Below the pieces are notes generated by a model. The model saw only the letters and a program-made list of their open reading frames with translations. It had not been told where the DNA came from and ran no database searches. A program made the position numbers and the translations under genes. Source: an uncultured Nitrososphaerota archaeon (lineage in GTDB: Archaea; Thermoproteota; Nitrososphaeria; Nitrososphaerales; Gagatemarchaeaceae). Taken from it: DNA of 64,000 bases. The DNA is taken from contig CAWISW010000001.1 of NCBI GenBank assembly GCA_963838925.1, positions 64,001-128,000 on the forward strand, in the 5' to 3' direction. Positions 31,472-38,444 of this stretch are shown here, one piece after another. Every line of letters starts with the position of its first letter. Position 1 is the first letter of the stretch.

Positions 31472-32746
31472 TTATGCGATATTTGCGTCAGTATAATTCG
31501 ACGCGGCTCTTGGACTATACGCGCCGCTTCTTTTCGCCCACCGTTGAGCCGCTTCAAATGAAACAAGCAGCTTCTTCGTTCTAGCGATTTCGACAACAAT
31601 CTTGGGTACAGACATTCGTTCTCCCGCGAGTCTCATGATCTCGGATCTAACATCGGGCGGGAGTCTTTCCTTCTTCTCCAGTCTTGGTGTTGTAGCCATG
31701 AGCTCCAGAAGGCTGTATCTAACGGTTCGGATGTGCGGCGAGAAGACCGGGACTCTAAACGAGTTTATCGCCTGAGACTTTACCAAGGAAACAGCTTCTC
31801 TATTTCGAAATCCCTTAAGGCCGAACGTTGCCAGAAGTTTGATAACGAAATCCCAATCTGGGATGACCCAGAATTCGACGGTTTGACTCGCCACGCTTAC
31901 CGATCCGTCCGACTCGGCGATGCCATGAAGCAATCCCAAACGAAACTCGAGGGGAGCATCTAGAGCCCAATTCATCTGCACCGGGTCGTAGGTCGTGTGC
32001 TGACCATCCTTTAGGGCTAGGACCACGTTGAATGTCCAGTCTACGAATGGAGAGGATTGGGAGACCCATTCATAGAAGCCAAAAGGCTTGTCAGCCGGCT
32101 TTGGGACGTCTCTCTTCCGTCCCATGCGTAATCCGAGTTGGTTCGCACAAAGGCTTGTGAAATCCCCAATCTTCACATTTGTTTCGTATCTCTTGCTTAG
32201 GACGACATGAACATTTCTGTGGCCGCGTCCTGGCTTTGGTTTGTGCGCGTCCCCTATGATCATCCCAACGAAGAAGCCGAACAAGTACTCCCGGCTGATT
32301 CCAACAACCGGGGGCCCTGGAGGGACGAGCTTACTCAAGACGTGATCAACGTCACTCCAGGAGGAAATAGCTTCGGGGACTTCAACGAAAGAGCCAATTG
32401 GGTTCGCATACCCATGAGAACATTCCATCGTTAGCCACACGAACCCCTCCCGGGGTTGGCCAAATTCAAGTAGGGCCTTAAGATAGAGACCAAGCTTTGG
32501 CGGCCTAGTCAGCTCCGACCACTCTGTAGCAAGATCTTTCTTGATGTCAATCTTCTCTAGGACGTTCGGCGGAGCACGACTGTTGCGGGAGAGGTTCAGG
32601 ACGTCTACGAACTCGGAGAATAGTCTCACGTCACGAGGAAGCGGTTCGCAACCTTTCCAGAAGAATTTCGTAAAGCCGAGGTCGTCACCGTGCGCAACGA
32701 CGTGGTCAATCATGCGTTGCTCTAGCTCCGCGCCCGCGACGCCCAT
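31472..32746 (-). CDS. Free-standing double-motif LAGLIDADG endonuclease-like protein with HTH-like C-terminus
   Basis: FFVGMIIGDAH and LLHGIAESDGSV motifs; C-terminal EIMRL...MSVPKIVVEI...VSFEAAQRW; lower GC than flanks. Confidence 0.8.
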   Translation of the reverse strand: MGVAGAELEQRMIDHVVAHGDDLGFTKFFWKGCEPLPRDVRLFSEFVDVLNLSRNSRAPPNVLEKIDIKKDLATEWSELTRPPKLGLYLKALLEFGQPREGFVWLTMECSHGYANPIGSFVEVPEAISSWSDVDHVLSKLVPPGPPVVGISREYLFGFFVGMIIGDAHKPKPGRGHRNVHVVLSKRYETNVKIGDFTSLCANQLGLRMGRKRDVPKPADKPFGFYEWVSQSSPFVDWTFNVVLALKDGQHTTYDPVQMNWALDAPLEFRLGLLHGIAESDGSVSVASQTVEFWVIPDWDFVIKLLATFGLKGFRNREAVSLVKSQAINSFRVPVFSPHIRTVRYSLLELMATTPRLEKKERLPPDVRSEIMRLAGERMSVPKIVVEIARTKKLLVSFEAAQRWAKRSGAYSPRAASNYTDANIA

Positions 32747-33235: not shown

Positions 33236-33247
33236 GTGACCGTCACC

Positions 33248-33664
33248 ATGTCGCAGCCAGACCCCAACGAGAAGACCCTCATCGTCGTGAAGCCCGGAGC
33301 GGTCGCCCGAGGGTTCGTGGGCGAGATTCTCGGGAGGTTCGAGAAGCGGGGCATGAAGATACTGCAGCTAAAGTCCCAGACCATGACCAAGGCCAAGGCG
33401 GAGGAGTTCTACAGCGTCCACAAGGAGCGGCCCTTCTTCGGCGAGCTCGTCGCGTCCTTCTCGGGCGGGATGACCGTCGGCGCGGTGATCCAGGGGATGG
33501 ACGCCGTCGCCACCGTCAGGAGGATGGTCGGCGCGACGAAGAGCTGGGAGGCTGCCCCCGGGACGATCCGAGCGGACCTGGCCATCGGGCTGACCGACAA
33601 CGCAATCCACGCCTCCGACTCGAAAGAGTCCTTCGAAAGAGAGAGCAAGGCCTACTTCTCCTGA
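33248..33664 (+). CDS. ndk: Nucleoside diphosphate kinase
   Basis: EKTLIVVKP, PGTIRAD, NAIHASDS. Confidence 0.96.
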   Translation: MSQPDPNEKTLIVVKPGAVARGFVGEILGRFEKRGMKILQLKSQTMTKAKAEEFYSVHKERPFFGELVASFSGGMTVGAVIQGMDAVATVRRMVGATKSWEAAPGTIRADLAIGLTDNAIHASDSKESFERESKAYFS

Positions 33665-33759
33665 CCCGCCAGCCGCTTTCTGCGCGATGACTTTTTTCTA
33701 ACCGCTCGCTAGAAAATAGTTGACGCGCGGCATCTTAGACGTGCGCGGGCAATTGTCCA

Positions 33760-34131
33760 ATGTTCATGGGTCAAATCTCGCGAGCCCTCGCGCTGGAGCA
33801 GGCGGGCGACTACCGGAGTGCGGTCAAATCGTTGATGAGCGTCCTCGATGACATCGAGGCGTCCTCGGAGTGGGACAGCGTCTGCGAATGGATAGCAAGC
33901 TGTTTCGAGAAGATCGGCGAGCACGCCGAGGCAGGGTTCTGGTACGAGACCGCGGGCCAGCTCACCCTCGCAGGCGACTCCTCGCCGGTCCCCCGGAAGA
34001 TATCCTCGGCGCTCTTCTTCGTCCAGAGGGCGTCGGACTGCTACTCGAGGTGTGGAACGGAGGGCGAGATGGCGACCGCCCGGACCAGGGCGATAAGCGT
34101 GGTGTTGGAGAGAGCATGTCCTCCCGCGTGA
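33760..34131 (+). CDS. Small helical TPR/SNAP-like hypothetical protein
   Basis: EQAGDY..A, ASCFEKIGEHAEAGFWYETAG, RASDCY helical-repeat pattern; host-like codon usage. Confidence 0.6.
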   Translation: MFMGQISRALALEQAGDYRSAVKSLMSVLDDIEASSEWDSVCEWIASCFEKIGEHAEAGFWYETAGQLTLAGDSSPVPRKISSALFFVQRASDCYSRCGTEGEMATARTRAISVVLERACPPA

Positions 34132-34231
34132 TGTTCTTCCGCTCGATCGCTCTGCGGCCGAGGCCGAAGCGCCGCAAGACCGGCAACTAGTCCTCACCAG
34201 CCGGTCCCCCCCTCAGCGGGGCTCGGGCGCT

Positions 34232-34801
34232 CTAGTTCTTGGGCTCAGACCCGCTACCGAGGAAGAAGTTGCCGATCTTGGTTATCCTCTCCCTGATGGT
34301 GGTCGCGGTCGTGTCTATCTGGAAGTAGAGGTCGAGCGATTTCAGGGACTGGGGGAAGTTGGGCCCGCGTCCCACCCTCAGGAGGGGTCTCTCGGTGCAG
34401 ACGGCAAGGACGGAGTCGATGAACTTCTTCCCGTCCTCTGGCGACTTGCTAACTGAGCACCGGATGGACAGAATCTCCCCGGTGTCGACGTCCCTGGCCA
34501 TCCAGAGGACTCCCTGGGTTTCACTGTTAAGATAAGCGACGTTCTCCTCGATCGTCACCAGGCGCCTCTTCTTCTCGGGCGTCGGGAGGGCGGCCATGAC
34601 CGCCTTCTGCGCGTCGTGGACCGCGACGTGGGATATCCCACCCAGGAGCTTGGACGCATCTCGTGAAGTGTACCCTGAAGCGCACAGGACCGCTGCCATG
34701 ACCTTCTTTTCCGTGGGAATCCTGCTCCTTTTGATGACGTTCTGGTCCTTCGCCCACGCAGAGAGGAACTCGATTATGGTGGGAGGAGGGGGGCTCGTCA
34801 A
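34232..34801 (-). CDS. Catalytically degenerate IS6-family transposase derivative (HTH retained, DDE lost)
   Basis: RSRIPTEKKV...GYTSRDASKLL..ISHVAVH (IS6-type HTH); LVTIEEN (typically IAVDET), LWMARDVDTGEIL, LLRVGRGP (typically LVD.GPW); third acidic motif and C-terminus absent. Confidence 0.78.
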   Translation of the reverse strand: MTSPPPPTIIEFLSAWAKDQNVIKRSRIPTEKKVMAAVLCASGYTSRDASKLLGGISHVAVHDAQKAVMAALPTPEKKRRLVTIEENVAYLNSETQGVLWMARDVDTGEILSIRCSVSKSPEDGKKFIDSVLAVCTERPLLRVGRGPNFPQSLKSLDLYFQIDTTATTIRERITKIGNFFLGSGSEPKN

Positions 34802-34958
34802 GACCTGTTAAGATAAGGCGCTCCACACTCATTAATGAGCTTTGCGAAATTATTCTCAAAAAAGGGTCCACGAACAGCGTTAAGTTAGCGTTCGGAGGCT
34901 GTTAACTTATCAGAATTCATAACGGTTATCTAGAAATTCCTACCCTAACAGAGACAAG
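34802..34958. promoter_or_regulatory. Divergent promoter region with inverted IS-end-like 13-mers
   Basis: CTGTTAAGATAAG at 34805-34817 (+); CTGTTAGGGTAGG on - strand at 34939-34951; related CTGTTAACTTATCAG 34899-34913; palindrome CTCATTAATGAG 34828-34839. Confidence 0.65.
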
Positions 34959-36014
34959 ATGGAAGTAAGTAACGAAGGAATGGACTTCATAGAAGCCGAA
35001 AAAATCGCAGCAGTCATGCGGATGGCCAAACCTAACGTGACCGTAATTGGTCTCGGAGGAGCCGGAAGCAACATCATCTCCTGGATCAAGGAGAGAGGCA
35101 TCGCCGGCGGCAAACTCATCGCCGCCAACACAGACGCAGCACACCTGAGCATCACCAAGGCGGATCGCAGGATCCTCATTGGAGAGAAGCTCACGCACGG
35201 CCAGGGCGCCGGAGGGTACCCACAGCGCGGTGCGGCAGCAACAAAGGAGTCGATCGACGACTTCCAAAAGGAAACACAAAACAGCAACATCATCTTCCTG
35301 TGCGCGGGCCTCGGAGGAGGCACCGGAACAGGTGCGATCGAGGTCCTCTCAAAGGAACTCGCAAGGCAGGGCCGCCTAGTGATAGGGGTCGTGACTTTGC
35401 CGTTCTCTGTCGAGAGGTTCAGGTACGACAACGCGAAGAACGCTCTCAAGGTTCTCCGCCAGTACTGTGACACCGTCGTCGCAATCGACAACACCAAACT
35501 GTCCAAAGTCGCAGGCGACCTGCCGTTACAGCAGGCGCTGGGCGTTGCCAACGAGCTGGTAGGCCAGTTCGTGAAGGGCATCACCGAGACCATCACCACG
35601 GCCAGTCTCATCAACATCGACTACGCTGACCTCCGCGCCATATGCGAGCGCAAGGGTCTAGCCGCGATCGGTGTCGGAGAGGCAAAGGGCTCTGACAGGG
35701 TTGAGGTCGCGATCAGGCAGGCCATCGAAGGGCAGCTGCTCGACATCAGAGACGTTACCAAGTCGCAAGGGGTACTCGTCCACGTGACAGGCGGCTCGGA
35801 CGTGACGCTGGAGGAGGTCACAAGGGCAGGCGAACTCGTAACAAAGTCGCTACCTCCGAAGGTCAGGATCGTCTGGGGCGCACGCGTAGACCCGTCTCTG
35901 GAAGGCCGTGTAAAGTGCATGGTCATGCTCACTGGCGTGGAGAGCACTTTCCTCGCTCAGCAGCAAGAGTACAGCTTCTCGTTCGGTCCTCTGAAGATCG
36001 GTCCAAAGAGCTAA
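34959..36014 (+). CDS. ftsZ: Cell division protein FtsZ (canonical, FtsZ2-like)
   Basis: IGLGGAGSN, NTD, GQGAGG, GLGGGTGTG, PF..E, LINIDYAD, WGAR, LTGV. Confidence 0.96.
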   Translation: MEVSNEGMDFIEAEKIAAVMRMAKPNVTVIGLGGAGSNIISWIKERGIAGGKLIAANTDAAHLSITKADRRILIGEKLTHGQGAGGYPQRGAAATKESIDDFQKETQNSNIIFLCAGLGGGTGTGAIEVLSKELARQGRLVIGVVTLPFSVERFRYDNAKNALKVLRQYCDTVVAIDNTKLSKVAGDLPLQQALGVANELVGQFVKGITETITTASLINIDYADLRAICERKGLAAIGVGEAKGSDRVEVAIRQAIEGQLLDIRDVTKSQGVLVHVTGGSDVTLEEVTRAGELVTKSLPPKVRIVWGARVDPSLEGRVKCMVMLTGVESTFLAQQQEYSFSFGPLKIGPKS

Positions 36015-36040
36015 AGAGCAAGGGCTGCGAGCCTTTCGCT

Positions 36041-36060
36041 CTCCTTTCCTTTTTATTTTT
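36041..36060 (+). terminator. Oligo-T archaeal terminator after ftsZ
   Basis: CTCCTTTCCTTTTTATTTTT just downstream of the stop. Confidence 0.6.
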
Positions 36061-36148
36061 CACAACCCAGCGGGAGCTGTGGCCGCGTATTCGGCAAGCC
36101 GATCCGACCGCGCAAGGCATAAGTCGGGCCTGCGTCGGCGGGAATTTC

Positions 36149-36562
36149 GTGAGGAGCAGGTCCCTCTCTGCGGCCGCGGCCCTCTCGCTGGCCATCGTCC
36201 TAGCGTCGAGCTTCGCCCAGGCGGCCTCAGCCTCTGTCTTCGTGGGGGGAACGGGCGACTGGACGCTGGTCGGCGATCCTACCGTGCAGACCTTAGGGGC
36301 GTCCCAGGCGGCTGAGCTCACCTACGAGAACCACCTGGCAACTCCCGTGTTGGGGGTGGTCATCATGGTCCTGCACAACAACATCGGCCAGACCGTGTAC
36401 TACACCACGGCGACGATCAATCTCAACTCCAGCTCCTACGGGACGGTCTTCCTCGTCGAGTATGGGGTGAATCCCGGTGTCTACAACGCGACCTTCTTCG
36501 CGTTCAGTGTCGCTGGGATTGCGATCTCCAATTGTGCGGAGACGTCCTTCCCGGCTCGGTGA
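36149..36562 (+). CDS. Small secreted protein = stand-alone homolog of the S-layer protein C-terminal domain
   Basis: Signal peptide; LHNNIGQTVYYTTATI...YGVNPGVYNATFF...GIAIS aligns with VHNAAGQTVDISTATI...YGLPSGTYSVTLF...GTAIS at the end of 59228-62635. Confidence 0.78.
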   Translation: MRSRSLSAAAALSLAIVLASSFAQAASASVFVGGTGDWTLVGDPTVQTLGASQAAELTYENHLATPVLGVVIMVLHNNIGQTVYYTTATINLNSSSYGTVFLVEYGVNPGVYNATFFAFSVAGIAISNCAETSFPAR

Positions 36563-36629
36563 CGCTGAAAAAAGCGAAGCAAGGGATAATTAGTAGTGGG
36601 TTCCCCATAACCCTGAATGCTGATTTCGC

Positions 36630-38444
36630 ATGTCCCAGTCAGAACAAAAACTCCGACAACCAGTCGTAGTCGTGCTGGGGCATGTTGACAGCGGAAAAAC
36701 TTCACTTTTGGATCGGATTAGGGGGACGGGCGTCCAGGCCCGCGAGGCTGGCGGGATCACCCAGGAGATCGGCGCCAGCTTCTTCCCGATGGAGACGCTC
36801 GAGGCAATCTGCGGCCCGCTGCTCTCGAAGACCGGCGGGCAGCTGAAGATACCCGGGCTCCTCGTCATCGACACACCCGGTCACGAGATATTCTCTAACC
36901 TGAGGATGCGGGGCGGCTCCGCGGCGGACATCGCGATCCTGCTCGTCGACGTCCTGAAGGGCCTTGAGAACCAGACCATCGAGAGCATAGAGATTCTCAA
37001 GGAGAGGCACGTCCCGTTCCTAGTGGCGCTCAACAAGGTCGACATGATCAGGGGCTGGAGGAAGGACACCAACAGCGGGAAGGGGGGCATCTCCCTCGCC
37101 GCCGCCCTCAAGCTGCAGCCCCCGGAGTGGAACGACGAGCTCGAGGAGCGCCTCTACAACGTGGTCGGCGGGCTCTCGAGGGCCGGCTTCCAGGCCGAGG
37201 CGTTCTACCGCATCCAGGACTTCCGCAAGCAGGTCGCGATCATCCCAGTCTCCGCGAGGACCGGCGTCGGCATACCGGAGCTCCTCGCGGTGCTCATCGG
37301 GCTCGCCCAGCAGTTCCTGACCACCAAGCTCTCCCAGGGGTCGGCCGACGTCTCCGGCAAGACCAAGGGGATCGTCCTAGAGCTCCAGGAGGAGGTGGGG
37401 ATGGGGCAGACCGCCAACATCATCCTCACCGACGGGACCCTCCACGTGGGGGACAAGATAGTGATCGTGAAGCGGGACGGGGCGGCGCAGTCCAAGGTGA
37501 AGGCCCTCTTCATGCCCAAGCCCCTCGACGAGATGCGGGACCCTCGCGACAAGTTCACCGCGGTGAACGAGGTGTACGCGGCCGCGGGCGTGAAGCTGGT
37601 CAGCCCCGACCTCGAGGGGGTAATCCCGGGGACAGCCGTGACGACCTTCCAGGACGAGGCGGAGTTCGAGAGCCTGAAGGCAGAGCTCGAGAAGGACCTC
37701 GGCACCCTGAGGCGCAGGAGCGACAACGTCGGGGTGGTGGTGAAGGCGGGGAGCATCGGCGGCTTGGAGGCTCTCATCAAGATGCTCGAGGACCGCGCCA
37801 TCCCCGTGCGCTCGGCCGACATCGGCGACATCTCAAAGGCCGAGATAATCGAGGCGGAGGCCGTGGCTGAGCGCGACCCCTACCTCGGCGCCATCATCGG
37901 GTTCGACGTCAAGGTCCTCCCAGAGGCAAAGGAGAGCCAGGAGCGCGTCAAGATCATCGCCTCCGAGGTCATCTACGACTCGGTCGAGGGCTACGTCCAG
38001 TGGGTGGCGTCGAAGAAGGAGGAGGACGAGAGGACGGCCCTCCAGAACGTCACCATGCCCGCGAAGATAAAGGCGCTGAAGGGGAACTTCTTCAGAAGGA
38101 ACGACCCCGCGGTCTTCGGCGTCGAGGTCCTCGCAGGCAGGCTAAAGCCCAAGGTCAGGCTGATGAACCAGAAGGGCGAGGAGGTCGGGATCGTCGAGCA
38201 GATCCAGGAAAACGGGAAGAACATCCCCGAGGCCGGCAAGGGGATGCAGGTCGCGATCTCCGTGAAGGGCCCCACCCTTGGGAGGACCATCAAGGAGGAC
38301 GAGGACCTCTTCACGTTCCCCACGAGCCACGACGCGAAGATACTGAAGGGCAAGTACGCCTCCACCCTGAGCCCTGACGACCAGCAGGCGTTCGAGGAGA
38401 TAATCGCCATAAGGTCCGCGAAGGACATGCTCTACGGGTTCTAG
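36630..38444 (+). CDS. infB: Translation initiation factor aIF5B (IF-2)
   Basis: RQPVVVVLGHVDSGKT, EAGGITQ, DTPGHE, NKVD. Confidence 0.97.
   Translation: MSQSEQKLRQPVVVVLGHVDSGKTSLLDRIRGTGVQAREAGGITQEIGASFFPMETLEAICGPLLSKTGGQLKIPGLLVIDTPGHEIFSNLRMRGGSAADIAILLVDVLKGLENQTIESIEILKERHVPFLVALNKVDMIRGWRKDTNSGKGGISLAAALKLQPPEWNDELEERLYNVVGGLSRAGFQAEAFYRIQDFRKQVAIIPVSARTGVGIPELLAVLIGLAQQFLTTKLSQGSADVSGKTKGIVLELQEEVGMGQTANIILTDGTLHVGDKIVIVKRDGAAQSKVKALFMPKPLDEMRDPRDKFTAVNEVYAAAGVKLVSPDLEGVIPGTAVTTFQDEAEFESLKAELEKDLGTLRRRSDNVGVVVKAGSIGGLEALIKMLEDRAIPVRSADIGDISKAEIIEAEAVAERDPYLGAIIGFDVKVLPEAKESQERVKIIASEVIYDSVEGYVQWVASKKEEDERTALQNVTMPAKIKALKGNFFRRNDPAVFGVEVLAGRLKPKVRLMNQKGEEVGIVEQIQENGKNIPEAGKGMQVAISVKGPTLGRTIKEDEDLFTFPTSHDAKILKGKYASTLSPDDQQAFEEIIAIRSAKDMLYGF

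Follow-up and report, generated by a model that had tools for sequence, protein, structure and literature searches.

The window analysed here is a 64,000-nucleotide stretch of DNA from an uncultured Nitrososphaerota archaeon (contig CAWISW010000001.1, positions 64,001 to 128,000 of the forward strand). Its genes of interest run in the order L7Ae, S28e, a 424-aa open reading frame (ORF), L24e, ndk, a 123-aa ORF for a TPR-like protein, orf189 (reverse), ftsZ, a small ORF and infB; the four genes from the TPR-like one to the small ORF form a block interposed between ndk and infB. An earlier note, made from the sequence alone, had singled out orf189 as a domesticated transposase of the IS6 family of insertion sequences (ISs), paired head-to-head with ftsZ. 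We saw the frame intact, as that note had described it, with host-like GC-rich codons (GC content 0.60; GC at third codon positions, GC3, 0.82, against 0.72–0.91 in the neighbours); the divergent spacer shared with an intact ftsZ and the position between ndk and infB were likewise found as described, with both flanks identified. GC content of the spacer is 41%, that of the whole window 61%. Conserved spacer sites that match terminal inverted repeats (IRs) of related active elements, and what they may say about the function of orf189, are the main subject below.

The product of orf189 gave no match at E ≤ 1 to Pfam or NCBIfam, PF13610 (DDE_Tnp_IS240) included, and a PF13610 profile scan of the window's genome did not recover it. 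Its ancestry is seen through relatives. A 224-aa ORF of a same-genus genome (the L020 transposase; PF13610 at 43.7 bits, cut-off 27) is 33–34% identical to orf189; searched against the window's genome, it has orf189 as its top match (E = 1.7e-15), ahead of four real PF13610 genes. When profiles of 33 short forms and of 28 full-length relatives, all 28 matching PF13610, were aligned with hhalign, the probability was 99.9% and E 9.8e-35 over 166 columns, covering residues 10–180. An ESM Atlas look-up of orf189 returned two Nitrososphaerota clusters first, then IS6-transposase clusters.

The full-length set is invariant at D82, E83, T84, D141 and E169. At the first Asp position of the catalytic triad orf189 has E85 (TIEEN), and its short-form family E, D or Q; at the second Asp position it has G144 (RVGRGP), the family G, E or S; at the Glu position it has T174, the family S, T or G. 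Beyond the Glu position the full-length proteins continue for 41–74 residues, orf189 for 15 and the short forms for 6–18, the last ~45 residues, including the K/R, being absent from orf189. Transposase homology and loss of the DDE triad, both claimed earlier, are borne out by these comparisons. The claim that the third acidic motif and the C-terminus are missing was right for the tail; the motif region, however, persists in degenerate form (IRERIT..NFF). We found no convincing inverted pair and no target duplication flanking orf189; the earlier observation that no IS end follows its stop still stands, but IR-derived sequence is present upstream of its start, and only there. These data establish orf189, at the level of sequence, as a C-terminally truncated and presumably catalytically dead descendant of an IS6-type transposase.

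The AlphaFold2 model of orf189 (64 aligned sequences; predicted local distance difference test score, pLDDT, 88.6; predicted template modelling score 0.80) begins with four N-terminal helices (residues 9–71); three strands, one helix, a pair of short strands and a last helix follow, so that the modelled order is RNase H-like. By profile alignment and model the four N-terminal helices are homologous to the helix-turn-helix (HTH) region of the transposases. The closest folds in PDB were the Mu transpososome, retroviral integrases and mariner-type transposases; these matches are weak (best E 1.2e-3, template modelling score ~0.3) and fit an RNase H-like fold without proving it. Searched against PDB sequences, the profile of the orf189 family found nothing below E 0.49.

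As a domesticated gene should be in the earlier account, orf189 is single-copy: no second copy was found in the window's genome (1.84 Mb, 3 contigs, 87% complete), and no remnant of it at the ftsZ paralogue locus on contig 2. Among 41 related genomes searched, orthologues 68–84% identical occur one each in 9 further same-genus genomes. Ten genomes, the window's included, keep the order ndk, TPR-like gene, orf189 (reverse), ftsZ; in an eleventh the contig ends within ftsZ. Frames are broken in two assemblies, G022 in orf189 alone and G012 in ndk and the TPR-like gene as well; the additional breaks in G012 suggest an assembly error.

Purifying selection was estimated from 28 pairs of 8 of the 10 genomes (G012 and G022 left out). 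The median dN/dS of orf189 was 0.16 (range 0.09–0.31, at dS about 1.2, which is near saturation), compared with 0.14 for the TPR-like gene, 0.10 for ndk and 0.08 for ftsZ; the expectation of a ratio well below 1 was thus confirmed. Within orf189, dN/dS is 0.11 for residues 9–75, aligned with the HTH region of the transposases, 0.18 for residues 76–165 and 0.23 for the tail. Transposase descent, single-copy syntenic orthologues and purifying selection mark orf189, as far as such comparisons go, as a domesticated gene. The features of a functional IS6 element, namely a PF13610 match, the DDE triad with the K/R, flanking IRs with a target duplication, and multiple or mobile copies, were not found in it.

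Short dead forms are widespread. A large protein database holds 114 clusters of the orf189 family, mostly of 180–195 aa, and a representative library 538 relatives at E ≤ 1e-3 (17 at E ≤ 1e-30). In the family of soil and peat Nitrososphaerales where it occurs, the dead gene was found in 47 of 97 sampled genomes at E ≤ 1e-40 and in 52 at E ≤ 1e-5; many of these genomes are incomplete metagenome bins, hence an absence means 'not found'. We built an unrooted tree of 65 rows (80 assembled, minus 14 fragments shorter than 195 aa and one mis-started row) by a quick search under LG+G4 with support from the Shimodaira–Hasegawa-like approximate likelihood ratio test (SH-aLRT). A branch of length 0.59 (SH-aLRT 99) separates all short dead forms from 39 DDE-intact proteins, so that the tree check proposed in the earlier note turned out in favor of one clade. 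A single origin of the dead forms would agree with the G that they share at the second Asp position and with their common truncation.

The spacer between orf189 and ftsZ holds three to four conserved copies of YGTTAAGWTAAG (sites 1–4; Table 1), and in an alignment of the spacers of 10 genomes they appear as repeated blocks of the form YGTTAASTTAWC. Similar sequence forms the ends of related active elements. One of these is the apparently intact L020 element (positions 1386–2152, 767 bp), which encodes the 224-aa DDE-intact transposase and is bounded by perfect 14-bp terminal repeats (GATACCGTTAAGAT) with identical 8-bp flanks (GCTTCTAG); the same genome also carries a dead homologue. Terminal repeats of four other relatives are GATGATGTTAAGATAAG (L015), GGGATTGTCAAGATAA (L013), CGATACCGTTACGATAA (L133) and GATGTTGTCACGATAAG (L016). 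Site 1 equals the inner 12 bases of the L015 repeat at 12 of 12 positions. A cTGTt core is given as conserved in IS6 repeats in the IS6 review (PMC7986276). The outer tip of the repeat is not retained in the sites, a loss that would fit binding kept without cleavage.

These sites are specific to the locus. The strict pattern YGTTAASWTA has 4 matches in the 64-kb window, against 0.12 expected from shuffles, all of them within 34525–34909; in the whole genome it has 6 matches, 4 of them at this locus, and a looser pattern has 66, with 5 at this locus. The remaining strict and loose matches are isolated and spread over the genome, some at gene junctions, others within or downstream of genes; no wider regulon could be inferred from them, and no other motif cluster of this kind was seen genome-wide. 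Confinement of the motif to its own locus makes a nucleoid-wide role unlikely and speaks against the earlier suggestion of a chromosome-binding partner, as far as a genome-wide one is meant.

Such sites recur upstream of distant homologues. From 45 homologue loci we took 33 unique upstream regions, with gene starts assigned by a simple rule. A reverse-oriented site lies 5–20 nt before the start in 28 of the 33; for 3 of the 5 misses no start codon was found. In 20 of the 33 (clade B and two genus-g25 loci), all upstream of distant homologues beyond the window's locus, a pair was seen: a forward site at −51 to −62 and a reverse site 44–47 nt downstream. Homologues from these loci that were aligned directly are 38–58% identical to orf189, a divergence at which neutral DNA would not be expected to keep such sites. 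An equivalent of site 3 is present 57–69 nt before ftsZ in another genus (L147). About 26–38 nt before the orf189 start there is a conserved AT-rich block, CATTAATGAGCTT (plus strand), placed where the archaeal TATA element of a leaderless gene would be expected. The promoter regions of orf189 and ftsZ thus carry conserved, locus-specific sites that are derived from IRs, judging by their sequence, and look like operators; they give some indirect support to the DNA binding that the earlier note supposed orf189 to have kept. An exact second copy of site 1 inside orf189 could be due to chance, through codon choice, or could be an internal site.

Table 1. Features of the ndk–infB region of the window and related genes elsewhere in its genome
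Feature	Coordinates	Strand	Remarks
424-aa ORF	31472-32746	-	no Pfam family; between S28e and L24e genes
ndk	33236..33664	+	left flank of the block; PF00334 5e-44
TPR-like protein, 123 aa	33760..34131	+	probable start ATG 33766 (MGQISR...)
orf189, 189 aa	34232..34801	-	TTG start, no stops; predicted dead, C-terminally truncated IS6 (IS240-type DDE) transposase derivative
Second copy of 13-nt site 1, exact	34524..34536	+	inside orf189 coding sequence (codons AYLNS); recurs in 3 related loci
orf189/ftsZ divergent spacer	34802-34958		157 bp
Site 1 (CTGTTAAGATAAG)	34805..34817	+	4-16 nt before orf189 start; kept in 10-genome alignment
Site 2 (GCGTTAAGTTAGC)	34877..34889	+	near-palindrome CGTTAA-s-TTAACG; kept in 9/10 aligned genomes
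Site 3 (CTGTTAACTTATC)	34899..34911	+	followed by conserved AGAATTCATAA; 48-60 nt before ftsZ ATG
Site 4 (CTGTTAGGGTAGG on minus strand)	34939..34951	-	weaker inverted copy; 8-20 nt before ftsZ ATG
ftsZ, canonical	34959..36014	+	ATG 34959; TIGR00065 317.8 bits vs cut-off 295.2; also Tubulin and FtsZ_C (Pfam)
Small ORF	36149..36562	+	signal-peptide-like N-terminus; start uncertain, longest frame from 35915, overlapping ftsZ
infB (aIF5B)	36630..38444	+	right flank of the block
aIF2-gamma gene, 1064 aa	39265-42459	+	intein (Intein_splicing 2e-18) and LAGLIDADG-like domain (2.6e-6)
Other two FtsZ paralogues, tubulin-family gene, CdvA gene	G000:C2:557274-558320, C2:138062-139057, C2:203365-204270, C3:136463-137038		window's genome

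The descent of orf189, its loss of catalysis, the selection acting on it, its synteny, and the presence of sites that are both conserved and specific to the locus can be read from the sequences; together they outline a probable history. A small IS6-family insertion sequence would have lost its right end, and its transposase would have become orf189, losing the last ~45 residues and all three catalytic residues while retaining its RNase H-like core and, at the N-terminus, the DNA-binding region. The dead gene appears to have been inherited vertically since then, as a single copy, within the one family mentioned above. Its product may still recognise the inner, binding part of the ancestral terminal inverted repeat; as IR-derived copies flank the core promoter of orf189, negative autoregulation would result. 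In the window's lineage two further copies, sites 3 and 4, lie just upstream of the divergent ftsZ and would place it under the same control, so that one repressor-like protein would set the level of both genes. Predicted steps here are the binding of DNA by orf189, the sense in which it regulates and whatever consequence this has for division. We consider it somewhat probable that orf189 is an IR-binding autoregulator that also controls ftsZ.

Linkage with ftsZ reaches beyond the genus. In 12 genomes of three genera ftsZ is adjacent and divergent to the dead gene: the 10 same-genus genomes and members of two further genera (G056 contig 79, with a spacer of 166 bp and three sites, and G053, with a spacer of about 310 bp); the conserved divergent linkage anticipated in the earlier note was thus observed. 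Elsewhere ftsZ lies at 1.2 kb (G061), 3.0 kb (G079), 4.4 kb (G044) or 78 kb (G074) from the dead gene. Of the 97 genomes of the family, 26 match FtsZ at E ≤ 1e-50, and 20 carry it as well as the dead gene; the two are on one contig in 16, and within 5 kb in 15 of these 16. Since the genomes of the family are related, such co-location counts describe the pattern and do not test it. In a quick FtsZ tree (22 rows, SH-aLRT, no bootstraps or rooting) the window's ftsZ falls together with that of G056 (SH-aLRT 98) and, with weaker support, with those of G053, G061 and G079 (87), which suggests that it is orthologous to those ftsZ copies that accompany orf189 homologues outside the genus.

Besides the window's ftsZ, the genome encodes two more canonical FtsZ paralogues, three in all; these two are 76% and 65% identical to the window's copy and group elsewhere in the tree, and one of them lies beside the peptidase gene of the second context described below, with a cyclophilin gene in between. 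A distant tubulin-family gene and a CdvA gene are also present (Table 1). Within the class FtsZ is rare: 9 of 301 sampled genomes reach the family cut-off, and none of 191 genomes of its largest family matches FtsZ at E ≤ 1e-20. A Nitrososphaerales group with canonical FtsZ, in up to three copies, alongside CdvA bears on the coexistence of FtsZ- and Cdv-based division. An extra ftsZ copy, 85–90% identical, was seen in another genome (G009:C3:1909434-1910873), split by an in-frame insertion of ~390 nt within one 487-aa frame.

More distant homologues of orf189 are found in a second context, made up of a peptidase gene (AN1-zinc-finger/M50), the dead transposase, a DCC1-like gene, cdvA (PF18822, 4e-21), an FtsX-like gene and an ABC ATPase gene. 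In 12 loci the dead gene has the peptidase gene beside it, and in 8 it is followed by CdvA; Pfam was run on the L105 and L112 members, the others being assigned by BLAST clustering. One genome, G079, has both neighbours in the order ftsZ, two ORFs, peptidase, dead transposase, DCC1-like, cdvA. On this distribution the family of dead transposases appears to be older and wider than its pairing with ftsZ. The pairing of orf189 with an ftsZ module, as originally proposed, holds for the window's lineage and the two further genera where the genes are adjacent; in most genomes, by contrast, the dead gene lies two genes upstream of cdvA.

At L105:7448-9380 and in homologous loci cdvA is followed by a gene for an FtsX-like membrane protein (weak Pfam match, 4e-4) and one for an ABC ATPase; an FtsEX-like pair beside CdvA may be of interest for Cdv-based division.

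Several observations weigh against orf189 as a regulator of its own gene and of ftsZ. Among the 47 carriers of the dead gene, 27 are without a canonical FtsZ match. Genomes with the cdvA context have no site upstream of cdvA or of the DCC1-like gene, and an ftsZ lying 1–4 kb from the dead gene has no clear site in front of it; support for control over division genes is accordingly limited to genomes in which they have a spacer in common with the dead gene. Site 4, with a match to the loose pattern in 7 of the 10 aligned genomes, is a weak one. The HTH of orf189 is assigned by homology, with no Pfam HTH match in orf189 itself and HTH-family matches in only 4 of the 28 full-length relatives. One of the 10 orthologues is frameshifted (G022). 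Finally, a plain repressor model leaves unexplained why the RNase H-like core is constrained too (dN/dS 0.18).

Other readings of orf189 can be imagined, among them a decaying IS remnant without function, kept by descent alone. One frameshifted copy (G022) and the status of orf189 as the fastest-evolving gene of the block could be cited for it; dN/dS values of 0.09–0.31 at dS about 1.2, frames that have stayed open at a constant length across 114 clusters and 47 genomes, and the single clade of dead forms with its long stem leave this explanation close to refuted. Truncated transposase-derived inhibitors of transposition are known in bacteria, and the dead protein could act as one, binding the IRs of IS6-like elements of its own group, whether incoming or resident, and blocking their transposase; sites at its own promoter would then be autoregulatory only, and ftsZ a bystander. 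Indeed, the sites equal IR cores of related elements, one genome (G018) carries the dead gene together with an intact element with an 8-bp target duplication, and degraded multi-copy relatives exist in other families of the order. Yet the window's genome is without an element of the L020 subgroup, the best match of the L020 transposase there being orf189, while the gene holds fixed positions beside division genes across genera and extra sites lie just upstream of ftsZ. We regard the inhibitor role as unlikely.

Two further roles may be considered. The protein may be a partner of other proteins rather than a DNA binder, its RNase H-like core forming with the TPR-like neighbour a complex that acts on FtsZ or Cdv proteins, with the sites being relics. 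Purifying selection on the core, the presence of the TPR-like gene next to the dead gene in two different arrangements and the division genes as neighbours would be in line with that; on the other hand, relic sites would not outlast the divergence between the homologues at a fixed spacing of 44–47 nt, and the HTH-homologous region is the most constrained part of orf189, which makes the partner role improbable to us. A DDE transposase core normally mediates synapsis. One could accordingly think of a site-specific DNA organiser, a leftover of the transpososome that would synapse or bridge IR-like sites, so as to tag or fold the DNA around ftsZ or to link the chromosome with cell division. The presence of several sites in both orientations would suit it; against it, the motif is concentrated here, where 4 of the 6 strict and 5 of the 66 loose matches of the genome lie and the sole cluster of its kind was seen, and we give this role as little credence as that of a protein partner.

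For orf189 as an autoregulator with control over ftsZ, parallels exist in the Tn5 inhibitor, IS1 InsA and IS911 OrfA, all of them truncated products of transposases which, by binding IRs, repress the element that encodes them. With these orf189 shares a (predicted) N-terminal IR-binding part, the absence of catalysis and IR sites overlapping a promoter for autoregulation; they are encoded by active mobile elements, whereas orf189 belongs to the host, is immobile and has orthologues in several genera. Joint co-option of a DDE transposase and its terminal repeats into host regulation is well documented in eukaryotes. A further step, taken tentatively, is that a dead IS6 transposase and operators made from its own terminal repeats might serve, in a family of soil Thaumarchaeota, as the resident regulator of a division-gene neighbourhood (ftsZ ... 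AN1/M50 protease, dead transposase, DCC1-like, cdvA, FtsX-like/ABC), setting FtsZ dosage in the few FtsZ-keeping lineages of a class that uses Cdv. In that event orf189 would be a prokaryotic case, with DDE transposase and terminal inverted repeats co-opted together into a cell-cycle circuit; we find this doubtful.

IS6/IS26-family transposases (PF13610) resemble orf189 in their homologous residues 10–180, with an HTH-type N-terminal region and an RNase H-like core, and in IRs similar to the spacer sites, including the cTGTt core as given in PMC7986276. They differ in having the DDE triad, the ~45-residue tail with the K/R, and a right end and target duplication; orf189, unlike them, is single-copy, syntenic and under purifying selection, and is not recognised by PF13610. 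TldR (10.1101/2023.11.30.569447) is similar in that a transposon enzyme lost catalysis and apparently is now a repressor of a host structural gene; it is a TnpB-derived, nuclease-dead, RNA-guided repressor of RuvC fold, bacterial or phage-borne, in contrast to orf189, an archaeal protein of DDE/RNase H fold expected to recognise DNA by means of its own HTH and of operators derived from IRs. SETMAR/Hsmar1 (PMC6326780) exemplifies the eukaryotic DNA-binding proteins that descend from DDE transposases, domesticated and apparently still specific for their old terminal repeats; these have many dispersed terminal-repeat sites and are fused to other domains, whereas orf189 has one locus, 2–4 sites and no fusion.

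In full-text literature searches we found no paper on a domesticated prokaryotic IS6-type transposase or on orf189, and the string 'domesticat' is absent from the available portions of the IS6 review (PMC7986276) and of a 2026 survey of archaeal ISs (PMC13343696). For a paper on a soil thaumarchaeal family (PMC10640624) the search showed 0 occurrences of 'FtsZ'. New in this analysis are the conserved spacer sites matching inner terminal repeats of related active IS6-like elements. As one can see side by side the dead protein, an element of the ancestral kind whose repeats are intact, and the operators apparently derived from such repeats, the proposed regulation is testable with one purified protein and the 157-bp DNA.

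Contigs of RNA libraries gave ftsZ-like sequence in 4 of 4 runs, and orf189 as one small contig (X12) and a trace (X11), with DNA carry-over possible; the spacer and most of orf189 were uncovered, and contigs of this kind cannot show transcript starts or levels. A structured RNA in the spacer was considered and dropped: Rfam had no match at E ≤ 1 over 33600–36700, and the RNA fold was unremarkable (z −0.57).

Turning to the rest of the block, in four of five relatives that are without it infB directly follows ndk, which indicates that the four genes are an insertion into a conserved cluster of translation genes; the fifth holds other content there. These relatives are also without canonical FtsZ, their best match being 22–23% identical. 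The 'TPR-like' label of the earlier note has behind it a TPR-like predicted fold, and in Pfam only sub-threshold TPR matches: the AlphaFold2 prediction has six helices, with a pLDDT of 84 in the best of five models and about 50 in each of the rest, and its best fold matches in PDB are TPR proteins (E ≥ 7e-3, with only one of the five models confident). Orthologues of this protein are 75–97% identical across the 10 syntenic genomes, and in another genus (L103/L144) the orf189 homologue has a 43% identical homologue of it close by on the downstream side. A paralogue family of ~125–131 aa, ~30% identical (e.g. G000:C3:788094-788378), was found in every one of the 22 other genomes labelled same-genus, at places remote from ndk and ftsZ. 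The small ORF downstream of ftsZ had been taken for an S-layer-domain gene; it matches no Pfam family, S-layer domains included, and its product looks instead like a small protein with a signal-peptide-like N-terminus, which evolves fast, homologues at the same position in relatives being 38–50% identical.

Outside the block, the 424-aa ORF is 56–63% identical in some relatives, partial in others and missing from the spot in still others; with such a patchy distribution it is best seen, from these genomes, as a variable insertion in the conserved ribosomal cluster. The aIF2-gamma gene of the window contains an intein (Table 1). The window's infB is uninterrupted; in three related loci (L101, L102 and L104) infB has an interruption of ~1.5 kb after about residue 24, the match resuming at residue 23, which looks intein-like.

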